Notes under the pieces: generated by a model
The model's input: the letters and a program-made list of their open reading frames with translations, nothing else
What the model was told of the DNA's origin: nothing
Database searches by the model: none
In this document: one piece after another, positions 34,252 through 45,718 of the stretch
How the letters are laid out: the number at the start of each line of letters is the position of its first letter
How positions within the stretch are numbered: the stretch's first letter is position 1
Made by a program: the position numbers and the translations under genes
Assembly (NCBI GenBank): GCA_943846685.1
Contig: OX044363.1
Coordinates: 1,765,386-1,829,385 of the forward strand
Source: an uncultured Pseudomonadales bacterium
Lineage (GTDB): Bacteria > Pseudomonadota > Gammaproteobacteria > Pseudomonadales > Porticoccaceae
Reading direction: 5' to 3'
Length of the DNA stretch: 64,000 bases

Positions 34252-34596
34252 TTACTCGAGAGTTATACGCTGCATATTTTTCTTGATTGTTTTACTTCCC
34301 ACGCCCTTGACCATCATCAGGGCATCAAGACTCTGGAAGGCACCGTTGGCATCTCGATAGGCGACTATGGCTTGCGCTGTCTTTATTCCTATACCTTTGA
34401 GAGAAGCTGCAAGTTCGGATGCGGATGCGCTATTGATATTAACCTGCTGCTGAGTCTGCTCAGAGACAAGCGCCCTACCCTGATCTGCTGGCGCAGAAAA
34501 AACAACAGAGGAACCGCAGAGGGCGATAAGAGAGGCACCGATCCAGAGAATTTTCTTACTTTTATTTAATCTGTTTTTTAACCTTTGTTTCAACAT
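34252..34596 (-). CDS. comEA: ComEA-family helix-hairpin-helix DNA-binding protein
   Basis: Signal peptide, VNINSASASEL..LKGIG.K.AQAIVAYR..NG.F.S.D.L..VKGVG; AAGGAG RBS. Confidence 0.92.
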   Translation of the reverse strand: MLKQRLKNRLNKSKKILWIGASLIALCGSSVVFSAPADQGRALVSEQTQQQVNINSASASELAASLKGIGIKTAQAIVAYRDANGAFQSLDALMMVKGVGSKTIKKNMQRITLE

Positions 34597-34785
34597 GGTC
34601 TAACTCCTTGTAGATTGATATGTTTTTGCGTCACAACTATCAATGATCATCCCTGTTTCATTCCCTTGAAGCTAAGCTTCACAGAGTCTTCACCACAAAA
34701 CAGCCTGCGACAGAGCAATACTGGCAAAAAGTCAGCGATAAACGGCAAGATCAGATCACAAAAACATTAATTTCGCCTCTTCTAA

Positions 34786-34814
34786 TTGACAAAAACTTCA
34801 GCGGTTACTATAGT
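34786..34814 (+). promoter_or_regulatory. near-consensus sigma70 stable-RNA promoter
   Basis: TTGACA (34786-91), 17 bp, TATAGT (34809-14), GC-rich discriminator CGCGCCCGC. Confidence 0.85.
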
Positions 34815-34973
34815 TCGCGCCCGCTGTGAGAGCTGGTGCAATAAGACCACAAAAGCTGATCACAGATATCGAGGAAACAGTCTCGGTGAAGGACAGGACG
34901 CCCGAAAGCGACCACGCGCGGGTCGACGTGAAATTAGCGCAGTTTTAGAAGTAAAAAGTCCATCTAGTTATAT

Positions 34974-35060
34974 GCCCAGGTGGTGAAATTGGTAGACACG
35001 CCAGCTTCAGGTGCTGGTCCTCGCAAGGGGGTGGAGGTTCAAGTCCTCTCCTGGGCACCA
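34974..35060 (+). tRNA. tRNA-Leu (CAG)
   Basis: 87-nt class II tRNA: GCCCAGG/CCTGGGC acceptor, CCAGC-TTCAGGT-GCTGG anticodon arm, long variable arm, GGTTCAAGTCC, CCA. Confidence 0.97.
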
Positions 35061-35434
35061 TTAAATATCTAAAGTCGATTCGGCTGAAAATTCTATCTAT
35101 CGCACATTATCCCAACCGGGACTTGAACCGGAACGAGGTTCACAAACTATGCCCACGGCAGAGTTTGGACGAGGCGCAAAGCGACGATGCCCCGAAGGGG
35201 TCAAAACAGCCCATAGGCTGTTTTTATCAACCCTCTCCTGGGCACCATAGATATCCAAAGCCTATTCGGCTGCAAAAGCAAACTATCTCTCTAAGTTCCA
35301 ACCGGGACTTGAACCGATAAGAGGTTCACAAACTATGCCCACGGCAGAGTTTGGACGAGGCGCAACGCGCCGATGCCCCGCAGGGGTCAAAACAGCCCAC
35401 AGGCTGTTTTTATCAACCCTCTCCTGGGCACCAT
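35045..35434 (+). repeat. tRNA-linked tandem repeats (two 186/187-bp units, each ending in a copy of the tRNA 3' end)
   Basis: CCTCTCCTGGGCACCAT at 35045, 35232 and 35418; the intervening units are highly similar. Confidence 0.92.
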
Positions 35435-35440
35435 ATATAG

Positions 35441-35470
35441 AAAGGCCGTCACTTTTGAGACGGCCTTTTT
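35441..35470 (+). terminator. intrinsic terminator of the tRNA-Leu unit (possibly bidirectional)
   Basis: AAAGGCCGTC-ACTTTTGA-GACGGCCTTTTT. Confidence 0.85.
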
Positions 35471-35496
35471 CGTTTCTGAGCAATAAGCGATTGAAT

Positions 35497-35802
35497 TTAC
35501 GAGGCGTATTCGCCCTCTTGCCTCACAATCAACTCAACCAATGGCTCGTTAATGTAAAAATTATTACGCCCCACCTTATGCTTGCTGACAAAGCCTTTCT
35601 CAGTCAGCGCCTCAAGGTATTTAGTCGCAGTTATACGAGTGACACCCAATTGATCAACCACAAACTGCACTTTGGTATAGGGATGAAAAAAAAGGTTATT
35701 CAGTAACTCCTGACTATACATTTTAGGCAATTCTGTACGCATGCGTTGCTTGGTGAGCATTATCAGGTCACGCATCTGATGCACAAAGTCAATCGTCTCC
35801 TT
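35497..35802 (-). pseudogene. C-terminal fragment of a Fic-family (SoFic-like) protein
   Basis: ELPKMYSQELLNNLFFHPYTK..LGVTRITATKYL..L...GF..K.KVGR.NFYIN matches the Fic C-terminal HTH. No FIC motif is present, and the frame is closed upstream by a stop inside the repeat array. Confidence 0.8.
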
Positions 35803-35938
35803 AAACTCTCATCTGACCCCAATTTACTCATCTGACCCCAATTTACTCAATTTACTAAACTCTCATCTGACCCCAATTTACTCTCAATTTACTTCTGACC
35901 CCAATTTACTCATCTGACCCCAATTTACTCAATTTACT
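35803..35938. repeat. irregular tandem array of TCTGACCCCAATTTACT
   Basis: Five exact 17-mers at 35812, 35831, 35866, 35894 and 35913, plus three extra CAATTTACT sub-units. Confidence 0.92.
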
Positions 35939-36057
35939 TCAGCCGTGGTTAAAACATCATCTATGGTAGCCGCCATGCCTTGCCACCCCAGTATCAAAAG
36001 CATTATCGAAATCACTGCGGCAAATAGTCTCGCTAAAACTCTACCCAAAGTGAACTT

Positions 36058-37959
36058 TTAGGCTGGCCCCTGTGTACAAAAACTATCCGATCGCTTTTCC
36101 TGACGGCTAAAAAACTTGGTGTTTTTATAGGGTAACTTCATAAAGCCCGACACCCCCAGACCATCAATCTGATCAAGATTGGTCAGTATCTCACTGAGAC
36201 AGCGGCGAAACTCATGCTCCCTAGATTTATCCAGCAGGGTGAAATAGTTATGAATTTTTAAATCCTTTTCCACCGCCTCAAAAATAATGCAACCGGTGTG
36301 ATGTATCTGATTCATAACGGCCAGTATCTGCATAATTGATTCTGGCAACTGTAGCCTCTCATCTGGATCACTGCCATCTTCAAAGTAGGAGTGCAGGCGG
36401 GTTTTGTTATCGTCATTATCTGAAGGGCTAATCTCTGAAGGACTTATCTCTGAAGGCAAGAGCTCGCCTATATCAAAGGAAATCTGCAAATCCGAGTCGA
36501 CCAAAAATTTTTGCTGGGCATTTTCACGCTCTATATGCAGGGTTTTTCGCGCATCAAACATACAGCTTTTAAACACCCCTTTTTTATTGATCGCACGACC
36601 CAGAGATACCACATTGTTAATTGCATTGATCAACGCTGGAGCATATTCAGCATCGTAGAGATTGAGATTGGAGTCTATATAGACACCACCATCATCCCAT
36701 CTAACCGCCAGACCGCCCGCGACGGGATAACGGCCTAGATGGGTAACCGCAATCACAAAGGCCTTTTCTGTATCACCCATACCGCTGAGATAATTTTTAT
36801 ACTCACCATAGCCCCCCAGACTTCCCACCAGTGGATGCTTGGCATAGCGGGGCTGAGCTTCAAACACGTCGGAACCAATCTCCTGACGGAGAAAACCCTT
36901 GCGCGAGCTGTACACCACTGTCTCTACCGTCACTTCACTGGAGGTAATCTGCAGTGGAATAAGTGACTCTTCCTGAGCCCTTATGGCGGGCTCTGAGCGA
37001 CTGACAATATGCTTCATATAGCGCATATTCTCGAAAAAGTAGTCCCCTGCTCTGCAGCGAGTATCGGCATCGTCATCGAGCATGCCGGCCAGGGTTCTGG
37101 CAAATTCTATCGGCAGCCCCAGAGACTCCAGAGTGATAACCTTTTTACCAAAACGACTGCCCTGCCCTGAGGCCAATGCGTAGAGAGTTCCGGCCAGACC
37201 CTGTTCATCAAAGCGCGGTGTGGAGCAGGCTCCCTGCAGCTGCTCTTCGCCGATAAAATATATATCGCCGAGTTTTGCATTGCTCTTTTGGTATTCCATA
37301 TTGATGGCGTCTATACCGAGGCTATCAATGCGATCACCGAGATGATTCTCCTGGGCAACCACCGCTGCACCCCAATCAATCAACGAGACTGTTTCAGAGT
37401 CGGGATCAAACATTATATTTGATGGCTTTATATCGCCATGAACTATAGTTGAACGGCCGGAATTATTGCGCAGACGCAACAGAATATCTGACATCTGTGC
37501 GGCAATTTTCAGTACCAGCCGTGGTTCGAGTTTGCCCACCTGACGGGCATAATCTTGCAGGTTAATCCCCGGTGCGCGGGACATCATCAATATGGATTGG
37601 CCGCGCACATGTTGAAAGGCGATATATTCAGGAATGCCCTGATGGGCAACCTGACTGAGCATAAAGCCCTCTTCTTCGAGGCGATCTTTAATATGCTGTG
37701 GCAGTGTGATACGCGAGAATTTAAAGACATATTGCTGTGTCTGCGAATCATCTTCACCGCCACTGGTACCGGCAAAAACAAAGCCGTAGGCGCCGTTGCC
37801 TATTAGCTCAATATTGCTGTATCCGAGACGCTCTAGCTGCGACTCACAGAGCTCTAACCAACTCTTTAGCTTGCGTGCATCTTTTTGACTGAGCAGATAA
37901 AACGATTGCTCTTCATTGATATAGAAATGCTGTAGGTTTTTGCTCTCATGTAAACTCAC
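36058..37959 (-). CDS. Hanks-type Ser/Thr protein kinase domain protein with long C-terminal domain
   Basis: IGNGAYGFVF Gly-loop, VFK lysine, helix-C EE, HGDIKPSN catalytic loop, DWG; GAGG RBS before GTG. Confidence 0.85.
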   Translation of the reverse strand: MSLHESKNLQHFYINEEQSFYLLSQKDARKLKSWLELCESQLERLGYSNIELIGNGAYGFVFAGTSGGEDDSQTQQYVFKFSRITLPQHIKDRLEEEGFMLSQVAHQGIPEYIAFQHVRGQSILMMSRAPGINLQDYARQVGKLEPRLVLKIAAQMSDILLRLRNNSGRSTIVHGDIKPSNIMFDPDSETVSLIDWGAAVVAQENHLGDRIDSLGIDAINMEYQKSNAKLGDIYFIGEEQLQGACSTPRFDEQGLAGTLYALASGQGSRFGKKVITLESLGLPIEFARTLAGMLDDDADTRCRAGDYFFENMRYMKHIVSRSEPAIRAQEESLIPLQITSSEVTVETVVYSSRKGFLRQEIGSDVFEAQPRYAKHPLVGSLGGYGEYKNYLSGMGDTEKAFVIAVTHLGRYPVAGGLAVRWDDGGVYIDSNLNLYDAEYAPALINAINNVVSLGRAINKKGVFKSCMFDARKTLHIERENAQQKFLVDSDLQISFDIGELLPSEISPSEISPSDNDDNKTRLHSYFEDGSDPDERLQLPESIMQILAVMNQIHHTGCIIFEAVEKDLKIHNYFTLLDKSREHEFRRCLSEILTNLDQIDGLGVSGFMKLPYKNTKFFSRQEKRSDSFCTQGPA

Positions 37960-44248: not shown

Positions 44249-45718
44249 CTAACGCTGGGCAACCAGCAGTGACTTATACAGCTGAGCGTATTCTTTGGCG
44301 CTGCTCTCCCAGGAAAAATCCTCGCACATACCCGCGCGCTGCAAATCACGCCACAACAATCTGTTGCTGTAGACAAACTCCAGCCGTTGCAGGGCTTCAA
44401 CTAAGGCGCTGCTACTGTACTGCCAAAACAACACTCCCGTGGCATCGGCAATATCCTCTGAAAATGGCGGTATATCAATAATCGTATCCGCCAGCCCGCC
44501 TACACCCTGGGCGACCGGTATGGTGCCGTAACGCTGGGCGTACATCTGGGTTAGACCGCAGGGTTCATAGCGCGAGGGTATTAACAGCGCATCGGCACCA
44601 GCAATAACAAGGTGGGCGATTTTTTCGTCGTAACCCAGTTTGACCTCAATACGCGATGGATACTTTAATGCTGCCTGCTTAAAAGCTTTCTCCAGCTTCT
44701 GGTCACCGCTACCCAACAGCAGAATATCCACTGGCATCTGCATAATCAGTGGCAGAGCTTCGAGCAGCAGGTCGAACCCTTTCTGTGGGGTCAGGCGCGA
44801 GACTACACCGAGCACCAGACGCTCACTGTTGCGCGCATGAAAAAACGCTTCCTGCAGGGCTAATTTATTAAAAACTTTGCGATGCAGGCTGCTGGTTCCA
44901 TAGACCGTATCAATTAATTGATCGTTACCGGGATCCCACAATCGGTTATCAATGCCGTTGGCAATACCTGAAAAACGCGGCCCAATACTCTGCAAAAGCC
45001 CCTCGAGACCGCAGCCAAACTGTTCGGTTAACACCTCTCTTGCATAACCTGCACTTACCGTATTGACTGCATCAGAGAAAACAATAGCGGCTTTCATAAA
45101 CGACATCTGGCCATAAAACTCCACTGCCCGGTAATCCCAAAGGCGCTTGCCATCGACCATCTCAGGCAGCTTAAGGGCTTTAAACTCCTCTTCATCAAAC
45201 AGCCCCTGGTAGGCCAGGTTGTGAATCGTAAACAGGGTTCGCGGACGCGGTTTAGCGGTCGCCAGCAACAGCGGTACCAGCCCGGTATGCCAGTCATTGC
45301 AGTGGACTATATCCGGCTGCCAGGATTGGTCTGCCTGGTCCATGGCAATCAAGGTTACCATTCGGCAAAACAACGCGAAGCGTTTGGCGTTATCCGGCCA
45401 GCCATGCTCCCGGTCTTCACCATAGGGGCCTCCGGAGCGATCAAAAAGCTCAGGGCAATCGATTAAATAGACTGGAATAGCCGTGTTTTCCAGATTGATT
45501 TTTAACAGGCTAAGCCGATAGCCATCAATGCGCGTGCTGAACGCAACAACCGCTCTCAGATGACCTAGCTCGTTTAATAGGCTGCGATAGGCGGGTAGAA
45601 CAATGCGCACCTGATGTCCGAGACGACTCAGGGCAAGAGGCAGGTTATAGGCAACATCGGCAAGCCCGCCGGTTTTGATCAGTGGGTAGAGTTCGCTGCA
45701 GGCAAAGAGAATCTTCAC
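44249..45718 (-). CDS. glgA: glycogen synthase
   Basis: KTGGLADV, HCNDWHTG, TIHNLAYQG, SRLTPQKG, PSRYEPCGL.QM. Confidence 0.96.
   Translation of the reverse strand: MKILFACSELYPLIKTGGLADVAYNLPLALSRLGHQVRIVLPAYRSLLNELGHLRAVVAFSTRIDGYRLSLLKINLENTAIPVYLIDCPELFDRSGGPYGEDREHGWPDNAKRFALFCRMVTLIAMDQADQSWQPDIVHCNDWHTGLVPLLLATAKPRPRTLFTIHNLAYQGLFDEEEFKALKLPEMVDGKRLWDYRAVEFYGQMSFMKAAIVFSDAVNTVSAGYAREVLTEQFGCGLEGLLQSIGPRFSGIANGIDNRLWDPGNDQLIDTVYGTSSLHRKVFNKLALQEAFFHARNSERLVLGVVSRLTPQKGFDLLLEALPLIMQMPVDILLLGSGDQKLEKAFKQAALKYPSRIEVKLGYDEKIAHLVIAGADALLIPSRYEPCGLTQMYAQRYGTIPVAQGVGGLADTIIDIPPFSEDIADATGVLFWQYSSSALVEALQRLEFVYSNRLLWRDLQRAGMCEDFSWESSAKEYAQLYKSLLVAQR

Follow-up and report, generated by a model that had tools for sequence, protein, structure and literature searches.

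A probable two-unit TLR array behind tRNA-Leu(CAG) in a Porticoccaceae genome and its relatives behind other stable-RNA genes

The window analyzed in this study comprises 64,000 nucleotides of the genome of an uncultured bacterium of the family Porticoccaceae (order Pseudomonadales, Gammaproteobacteria; assembly GCA_943846685.1, contig OX044363.1, positions 1,765,386 to 1,829,385). It includes a gene for tRNA-Leu(CAG) that is followed by two tandem repeat units, each ending in a copy of the tRNA's 3' end. These units are the subject of the present analysis, in which they are compared with the tRNA-linked repeats (TLRs) known from tRNA and rRNA operons of Escherichia coli. The features of the locus are listed in Table 1 in window coordinates. 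The 17-mer CCTCTCCTGGGCACCAT, which consists of the last 16 nt of the tRNA and the next base, occurred exactly three times, at positions 35045, 35232, and 35418, and it thereby delimits two units of 186/187 bp, as a first-pass annotation of the sequence had noticed. When up to three mismatches were allowed, the 16-mer was found at three positions in the whole window compared with 0.35 expected, and three occurrences were reached in none of 100 shuffles. The program TRF reported a period of 186 bp with 2.1 copies and 88% matches, and the two units were 88% identical according to both TRF and a repeat finder. The joins between the tRNA and unit 1, between the core end with its 3'-end copy and the spacer of unit 2, and between unit 2 and the terminator were all reproduced without differences in contigs from independent marine metagenomes; hence, the array is not an assembly artefact.

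Table 1. Features of the tRNA-Leu(CAG) locus, with the corresponding positions in unit 2.
Feature	Position	Strand	Evidence	Unit 2
Predicted sigma-70-like promoter of the tRNA-Leu operon (TTGACA, 17 nt, TATAGT)	34786-34814	+	Consensus match at 11/12 positions	
Conserved leader element with two GGA motifs	34878-34914	+	Common with repeat units upstream of tRNA-Leu(CAA) and tRNA-Leu(GAG)	
tRNA-Leu(CAG), intact	34974-35060	+	ARAGORN; Rfam tRNA model (53.9 bits)	
TLR-type unit 1, 187 nt	35061-35247 (start at 35062 by TRF and repeat finder)	+	R1 115 bits, R2 112 bits; RNA fold z-score -3.2	
Variable spacer, 53 nt, with conserved motif ATTCGGCTG at 35078-35086	35061-35113	+		35248-35299
Antisense T-arm hairpin CCGG-GACTTGAA-CCGG, holding the 11-mer GGACTTGAACC (35119-35129)	35116-35131	+		35302-35317
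GGTTCAC, left border of the core resembling a T-loop; paired with GAACC at 35125-35129	35137-35143	+		35323-35329
Hairpin H1, then conserved linker TTTGGACGAG (to 35173)	35144-35166	+		35330-35352
Hairpin H2 (GGCGC-AAA-GCGAC)	35173-35185	+		35359-35371, perfect stem GGCGC/GCGCC
Hairpin H3 (GCCCC-GAA-GGGGT)	35189-35201	+		35375-35387, loop GCA
Hairpin H4 (AAAACAGCC-CATA-GGCTGTTTT)	35203-35224	+	-13.9 kcal/mol	35389-35410
Exact repeat of the tRNA's final 16 nt (T-stem 3' strand, acceptor 3' strand, ACCA)	35232-35247	+		35418-35433
TLR-type unit 2, 186 nt	35248-35433	+	R1 117 bits; RNA fold z-score -4.4	
Strong terminator-like hairpin (35441-35468) and T run, closing the operon	35441-35475	+	-18.8 kcal/mol; ctRNA-like terminator match in Rfam	

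The spacer that opens unit 1 was conserved only at ATTCGGCTG, and it occupies the place that is taken in canonical units by a strong first terminator. It is followed by the hairpin with the 11-mer GGACTTGAACC, which begins at 35119 and again at 35305 and is the exact reverse complement of the tRNA T-arm at 35036-35046, in agreement with the first reading of the sequence. The left border of the core is occupied family-wide by either GGTTCAC or GGTTCGAC. The three internal hairpins originally named (the GAACC/GGTTC pairing, H3, and H4) were present, and two further ones, H1 and H2, were found between the border and H3. The T-loop-like sequence ATCAAC directly precedes each 16-nt copy of the tRNA end. 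Both units folded better than their shuffles (Table 1). The terminator scan tool flagged no site in 34600-35600, and the hairpins were graded by their folding energies: H4 looks like a weak bidirectional terminator, while the sole strong terminator-like hairpin comes after unit 2, where the true terminator had been placed from the outset.

The genome is a single contig of 2.21 Mb with 39 tRNA or transfer-messenger RNA (tmRNA) genes. Relatives of the units were searched for by iterated nhmmer and by two covariance models, R1 built from four units and R2 from 57 matches. The shared core is 105 nt long, contains the four covarying hairpins, and was present in 24 to 26 copies across the nhmmer, R1, and R2 searches. 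All 24 significant R1 matches were located downstream of a tRNA gene (12 genes) or of a tRNA-Pro pseudogene fragment, and all were on the same strand as that gene or fragment. The occupied genes were those for Arg-TCG, Ser-GCT, Leu-TAA, Lys, Ala-GGC, Arg-ACG, Ser-GGA, Ser-TGA, Pro-GGG, Asp, Leu-CAG, and Val-GAC, with one to five units per locus and two at Leu-CAG. The units are not peculiar to the Leu-CAG locus. Because the regions of approximately 700 bp downstream of tRNAs, on the tRNA strand, make up only about 0.6% of positions on the two strands, the same-strand placement is not due to chance. R2 added one weak match (E = 0.0015), which was located upstream of tRNA-Ser(GCT). Additionally, 14 of the long tandem repeats of the genome adjoin tRNA genes or the rRNA operon, upstream as well as downstream, and exact copies of their own 3' ends follow four tRNAs (Met, Leu-TAA, Leu-CAG, and Phe).

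Covariation of the hairpins was assessed in a model-based alignment of the 57 matches (51 distinct) with a hand-set structure, and the figures are somewhat inflated by the fitting of the alignment to the model. This alignment superseded one of 12 units by MAFFT and RNAalifold, which recovered only H3 and part of H4 and misaligned H1 and H2. The paired cells amounted to 94.6%, compared with 74% in shuffles and 33-49% when the partners were slid. Changes on both sides were found in 24 of the 26 pairs, and double changes occurred in 190 cells compared with 40 expected. All pairs had changes on both sides in H1 (9/9, with 95% of cells paired), H2 (5/5), and H4 (7/7), and the stem sequences of these three hairpins varied visibly across the alignment rows, while H3 was the most conserved part of the family (95% of cells paired). 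Small open reading frames (ORFs) that overlap the units seem unlikely to be coding sequences, because the stems covary and because the unit of a congener carries a 1-nt insertion in the H3 loop.

The core was also found outside of this genome. In a sample of 141 genomes from across the order, R1 matched 27 (19 of 91 genera), and R2 matches were present in 39 of 151 genomes of the class, which was sampled with one genome per family. The names returned by a pattern scan pointed to Porticoccaceae, Halieaceae, and other Pseudomonadales in the GTDB sense. A tRNA gene was found upstream on the same strand at 22 of the 27 order loci fetched; two of the other five were at contig ends, and three lay outside the check. 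Similarly, a same-strand stable-RNA gene was upstream at all 11 class loci, one of which was a tmRNA gene (locus L125). Among order and class loci, the core was typically located 65-100 nt past the upstream tRNA.

Comparison of these loci revealed a canonical unit, in which the tRNA is followed by a strong bidirectional terminator, an antisense copy of the last ~28 nt of the tRNA (starting with TGG), GGTTCGAC, H1 to H4, (G)ATTCAATCC, and then the T-stem 3' strand, the acceptor strand, and CCA of the tRNA. The two copies, antisense and sense, pair in canonical members into a long closing stem that surrounds the hairpins. Over a set of 33 loci, the cognate relation was clear for the sense copy, the own tRNA ranking in the top tenth at 20 of them (p ~4e-6), and only weak for the antisense copy, with eight such loci (p ~1e-4). 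Within this genome alone, the sense and antisense copies of the own tRNA were not significant for Ala, Arg, Pro, and Asp. The notion that clear copies of the own tRNA in both orientations are present in all units was rejected, the antisense copy being only weakly cognate over the 33 loci. Most class-level members (loci L117-L125) had AGGA, GGGA, or TGGAA in the loops of H1 and H4, as does E. coli RrB, and the members from the order of this genome were mostly free of such GGA-type loop motifs. At one locus from another family of the order (L028), two exact copies of the 3' end stand behind tRNA-Leu(CAG), at +193 and +402; a strong terminator is present there, and the body is unlike that of the Leu-CAG units described here.

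Among the congeners of this bacterium, three genomes had two units after tRNA-Leu(CAG), and a fourth had at least one. A fifth carried one unit plus a decayed one, the unit of a sixth was truncated, and at least nine others had none there. The antisense 11-mer, on whose conservation the first-pass annotation had staked its reading, was kept in the homologous units of four of five congeners and had a single mismatch in the fifth. Between species, the core was 86-92% identical and the spacer 49-57%, and the core has thus evolved more slowly than the spacer. Units within one array were more alike than units of different species, with identities of 97-100% in two genomes and 88% here, a likeness that fits repeated duplication or homogenisation via the direct repeats of 16-17 nt. 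Beyond the genus, cores that share a tRNA resembled one another no more than cores behind different tRNAs (0.64, within-genus pairs included, vs. 0.60-0.61). The Leu-CAG core was most similar to units of the genome it belongs to, those of Pro-GGG and Leu-TAA, which hints at transfer between loci.

In E. coli, where TLRs were first described in 1978, 22 units are found at ten loci in tRNA or rRNA operons, and each closes with 18-19 bp that are the same as those at the 3' end of the upstream gene (PMC8144298). They include RtT/RttR behind tyrT-tyrV and RrA/RrB/RrF behind rrnA/B/D (PMC8144298). When R2, which contains no E. coli sequence, was run on the 4.64-Mb K-12 chromosome, its five best matches were TLRs: those at the ends of rrnD, rrnA, and rrnB scored 28.7-28.9 bits (E ~6e-4), and those of lysQ and lysV scored 22.3 bits (E = 0.03). 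The matches behind rrfB, lysQ, and lysV begin 65-74 nt past the gene on the same strand, as checked against the annotation. In the alignment of R2 to the rrnB spacer, H1, UUUGAACG, H2, H3, and H4 were all matched. The tyrT/tyrV units scored 15-18.5 bits with R2, and the order of parts in the tyrV units, namely an antisense copy of the tRNA 3' part, GGTTCGAC, small hairpins with GNA loops, and AATCC with the tRNA 3' end, is the same as in the family described here. R1, built from four sequences, did not find the E. coli TLRs in K-12 (best E = 4.8). The parallel with tyrT/RtT that had been proposed from the sequence therefore held, since the best K-12 matches of a model built from the family are the E. 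coli TLRs. An Rfam search, which had been proposed as a check, returned neither RtT (RF00391) nor any other family on the units at E <= 10 in 34500-36000; conversely, the best matches of the RtT model in the genome, below its threshold, fell on units of the family. Judged by sequence and structure, the array is classed as a TLR, but not as a member of the Rfam RtT family. No relevant report of RtT, RttR, or TLRs outside the enterobacteria and their near kin was found in the searchable literature.

The region is therefore best described as a probable two-unit TLR array, a Porticoccaceae-type counterpart of RtT/RttR and RrA/RrB/RrF of E. coli, that would be co-transcribed with its tRNA, cut at the CCA copies, and subject to recombination. 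Each unit consists of a fast-evolving spacer representing a decayed first terminator, an antisense T-arm hairpin, the H1-H4 core, and the 16-nt copy of the tRNA end. Because no strong terminator separates the tRNA from the units, the array would be transcribed with tRNA-Leu from the predicted promoter at 34786, ending at the terminator at 35441. The 3'-end copy and the A/T-rich bases after it may recreate the maturation signal of the tRNA 3' end, and the same nucleases would release units of ~186 nt that end in CCA. Such unit ends were mapped for RrB of E. coli, and for both RtT and RrB, transcription together with the gene upstream and processing into a discrete RNA have been shown (PMC8144298). 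CCA-ended small RNAs from the units, as initially suggested, are plausible. Through unequal recombination or slippage, the 16-17-nt direct repeats could further cause units to be gained, lost, and homogenised. The membership in the family, the covariation of the hairpins, the exclusive placement behind tRNA genes on their strand, the slower change of the core relative to the spacer, and the variation in unit number among species are established by the data. Moderate confidence is placed in these three steps, namely co-transcription with tRNA-Leu, release of a ~186-nt CCA-ended RNA by tRNA 3'-end nucleases, and growth by unequal recombination.

Several observations weigh against this interpretation. 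Besides the inflation of the covariation figures mentioned above, the counts of G-U and A-C in the stems were 14 and 11, without strand bias, and selection on the hairpins could thus act in DNA, or in either strand, instead of in the sense RNA. The antisense segment of the Leu-CAG units does not pair with the 3'-end copy, unlike that of canonical members; the closing stem is absent here because the segment fits the T-arm of tRNA-Leu(GAG/TAA). The R2 matches in E. coli were modest, and the best match of the Rfam RtT model in the genome, at the Ala-GGC units of the family, reached 25.8 bits compared with a gathering threshold of 45. The best RNA runs were Logan contigs of metatranscriptomes, where the depth over the units was 36-70 compared with 43-55 over the flanks; this is like the DNA runs, carry-over of DNA is possible, and the flat depth gives no information on transcription, strand, or ends. 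Additionally, H4 may terminate part of the transcripts.

Several other arrangements of tRNA-associated repeats were observed in the genome. The tRNA-Pro pseudogene fragment, at genome positions 1693733-1693860 on the reverse strand, extends from the anticodon arm to the T-loop sequence GGTTCA and is fused directly to a TLR core. It is identical to tRNA-Pro-GGG at 26 of 28 nt (by eye), and it is the clearest case of a core inside a T-loop. The core of this fragment (1693733-1693837) is followed by a second core-like stretch and then by a tRNA-Pro 3' end in decayed form. Four tandem arrays lie upstream of tRNA genes, at genome positions 45273-45570, 1047109-1047599, 1352258-1352906, and 1840688-1840968. 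In three of these four (Leu-GAG, Ser-GGA, and Leu-CAA), the units start with a copy of the first 22-24 nt of the tRNA, reaching to the D-loop, while no copy of the tRNA 5' end was seen in the upstream units of tRNA-Met. The upstream Leu units then hold hairpins with AGGA loops that resemble CsrA sites, and those of Ser-GGA hold a core like H1 (GAC-AAAACAC...GTGTTTT-GG). The upstream arrays look like a 5' mirror image of the downstream TLRs.

Further arrays lie behind tRNA-Phe and two tRNA-Met genes (genome positions 2092852-2093401, 36400-36494, and 1046360-1047036). The tRNA-Phe array (3.5 units of 158 bp) and the single unit of one tRNA-Met terminate in exact copies of the tRNA 3' end, and their bodies were matched by neither R1 nor R2; they resemble TLR-type units whose hairpin cores differ or have been rearranged. 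In the other tRNA-Met array (5.6 copies with a period of 121 bp), the exact-copy test identified no 3'-end copy. Upstream of the single rRNA operon, genome positions 597964-598210 contain three tandem promoter-like blocks (TTGACA, 17 nt, TAGAAT, GCGC) with a period of 113 bp. At genome positions 1107738-1109123, csrA is located directly upstream of tRNA-Ser(GCT), with the weak core match between them and a TLR array of five matches after the tRNA; csrA presumably also lies just upstream of serV in E. coli.

At the Leu-CAG locus itself, the promoter predicted from the consensus is the single such sigma-70-like site in 34600-35600. The leader element is 35 nt long, with its GGA motifs in GTGAAGGACAGGACGCC...AGCGACCA, and its local alignment scores with the upstream repeat units of tRNA-Leu(CAA) and tRNA-Leu(GAG) were 45 and 32 (mean 15 and maximum 22 in shuffles); it is homologous to them. 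The neighboring genes encode a ComEA-like HHH protein, a C-terminal remnant of SoFic, a kinase, and BCKDH components. The remnant is a 95-aa ORF at 35497-35784 on the reverse strand, whose match is confined to the C-terminal domain of SoFic-like adenylyltransferases (E = 4e-25), and by this match it is a truncated Fic-family gene. A 19-bp tandem array of 7.2 copies (35808-35931, identified by TRF) adjoins it.

Other explanations of the units were also considered. The core could be a present or recent mobile DNA cassette without a protein of its own, which would lodge in copies of stable-RNA gene termini (from the T-loop to CCA downstream, and from the 5' end to the D-loop upstream) and spread between tRNA loci, with hairpins that act in DNA and RNA as a by-product. 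This explanation is compatible with the assignment to TLRs, and it is considered unlikely, although it deserves some weight. It would agree with the patchy spread of the core across the order and its occurrence at tRNA-Leu(CAG) in only one subclade of the genus, with the lack of greater likeness among cores behind the same tRNA outside the genus, and with the fit of the Leu-CAG antisense segment to tRNA-Leu(GAG/TAA) in combination with a core closest to the Pro-GGG unit of its own genome. The halves of a T-loop that border the core (GGTTCGA ... AATCC), the core placed directly in the T-loop of the tRNA-Pro fragment, the upstream arrays with tRNA 5'-end copies and a related core, and the lack of a G-U strand bias all point in the same direction. 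However, no enzyme is associated with the units, and no pair of empty and filled sites was found. The tyrosine-recombinase domain PF00589 had no match at E <= 0.001 in this 98%-complete single-contig genome; a single weak XerD-like match (27.9 bits) was located at genome positions 1535896-1536603, and canonical XerC/XerD are apparently either absent or highly diverged. A transcribed function would also agree with the strictly same-strand orientation and with the slowly evolving core, and direct repeats alone suffice for tandem growth.

Three further readings are far less probable. The spare attachment sites suggested in the first-pass annotation would make the 3'-end copies leftovers of tRNA-integrating islands or phages and the units scars of decayed elements. 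Direct repeats of a tRNA 3' end are indeed a hallmark of such integrations, and the truncated Fic-family gene and 19-bp array just downstream suggest past foreign DNA; however, the repeats enclose only ~170 non-coding bases and no foreign genes, no integrase was found in the neighborhood or detected in the genome, and the independent decay of islands would not give the same core behind 12 tRNA genes here and behind tRNA and rRNA genes of E. coli. This reading is accordingly very doubtful. The same annotation had proposed that pairing with the T-arm modulates tRNA processing; in this reading, the antisense 11-mer would bind the T-arm of tRNA-Leu within the precursor and control how it folds or is processed. 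The match is exact over 11 nt, lies mostly in a hairpin loop, and is kept in congeners, but seven of the 11 nt belong to the T-loop and are common to the Leu isoacceptors of this genome, and the 11-mer proved to be the T-loop part of a family-wide antisense segment. This segment is a better fit to other Leu isoacceptors (own tRNA 11, best other 17), does not favor the own tRNA once most of the T-loop is left out (own 6, others 5.1), and in canonical members pairs with the 3'-end copy of the unit and not with the tRNA, such that regulation by T-arm pairing is highly improbable. It is just as improbable that the units are decayed tandem copies of the tRNA-Leu gene. Their AGAGG/CGAGG before GGTTCA resembles the T-stem 5' strand, and the true 3' end follows ATCAAC, as in a T-arm split by an insertion; but ARAGORN found only the intact gene, the matches of the Rfam tRNA model were confined to 34974-35057, and the unit body is the core common to units behind unrelated tRNAs and not a decayed tRNA-Leu.

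Taken alone, the Leu-CAG locus is a modest result, an ordinary member of its family. The E. coli TLRs have been known since 1978 and are still without an agreed function, and the present analysis adds that a module with a covarying four-hairpin core trails tRNA, tmRNA, and rRNA genes in about a quarter of the gammaproteobacterial families sampled, that a streamlined marine genome of 2.2 Mb carries arrays at a third of its tRNA genes, and that the borders of the core coincide with tRNA loop positions. It provides a broad comparative data set and an annotation model (H1-H4 and the linker UUUGRACGAG) for elements missed by Rfam 15. As a tentative conjecture that is more likely to be wrong than right, the TLR core might be one ancient class-wide module, including the E. 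coli rrnB T1-T2 spacer, that propagates by lodging in copied termini of stable-RNA genes. If true, this would make it more than a trailer duplicated in place; a cassette lacking a protein of its own, or a process guided by RNA, would be acting specifically at stable-RNA genes.

Among other known systems, attachment-site repeats and integrase-less CIME-type remnants at tRNA genes resemble the Leu-CAG array in that an intact tRNA is followed downstream by direct repeats of its 3' end, and in that they can stack. They differ in that the array contains no integrase or cargo and has a conserved structured core that is also found behind E. coli rRNA genes. The 3'ETS-leuZ of the glyW-cysT-leuZ operon of E. 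coli is a functional tRNA-trailer RNA, single and short, that sponges small RNAs (PMC8144298). A functional RNA could similarly be released from the tRNA precursor by tRNA-processing nucleases at Leu-CAG, at a level that would follow the transcription of the tRNA; in contrast, 3'ETS-leuZ lacks a tRNA-end copy, tandem units, and a shared core, and no target pairing is proposed for the Leu-CAG units. Sponge RNAs of the CsrB/RsmY type are likewise non-coding RNAs with multiple hairpins, many class-level members of the family have AGGA in the loops of H1 and H4, and csrA is present in this genome. The GGA motifs of the Leu-CAG units, however, are only at 35118-35121, 35130-35132, and 35167-35169, all three in stems or linkers, and the hairpin loops are CAC, AAA/AAC, GAA/GCA, and CATA/CACA. 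Because no loop contains GGA, a role as CsrA sponge is unlikely for these units.

The closest likeness is to the TLRs of E. coli. As in these, the units lie directly downstream of a stable-RNA gene in a tRNA operon and on its strand, are present in one to five tandem copies at several loci (two here, among 12 tRNA loci), and each end in a stretch identical to that gene's 3' end. The relatedness in sequence and structure extends, within the modest scores of R2, to the order of parts, including a border like GGTTCGAC, GNA-loop hairpins, AATCC with the 3' end, and an antisense copy as in the tyrV units. The final terminator similarly follows the last copy, and the one at 35441 stands in the place of T2 behind rrnB. 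The two differ in the length of the copy, which is 16 nt and one following base here and 18-19 bp in E. coli, in the lack of a strong first terminator between the tRNA and the units at Leu-CAG, and in the host, which belongs to another order and carries the family at 12 tRNA loci of a 2.2-Mb genome. RrB of E. coli binds CsrA in vitro via loops that bear GGA, the function of TLRs being otherwise unknown (PMC8144298), and such loop motifs, characteristic of RrA, RrB, and RrF, are absent from the Leu-CAG units.

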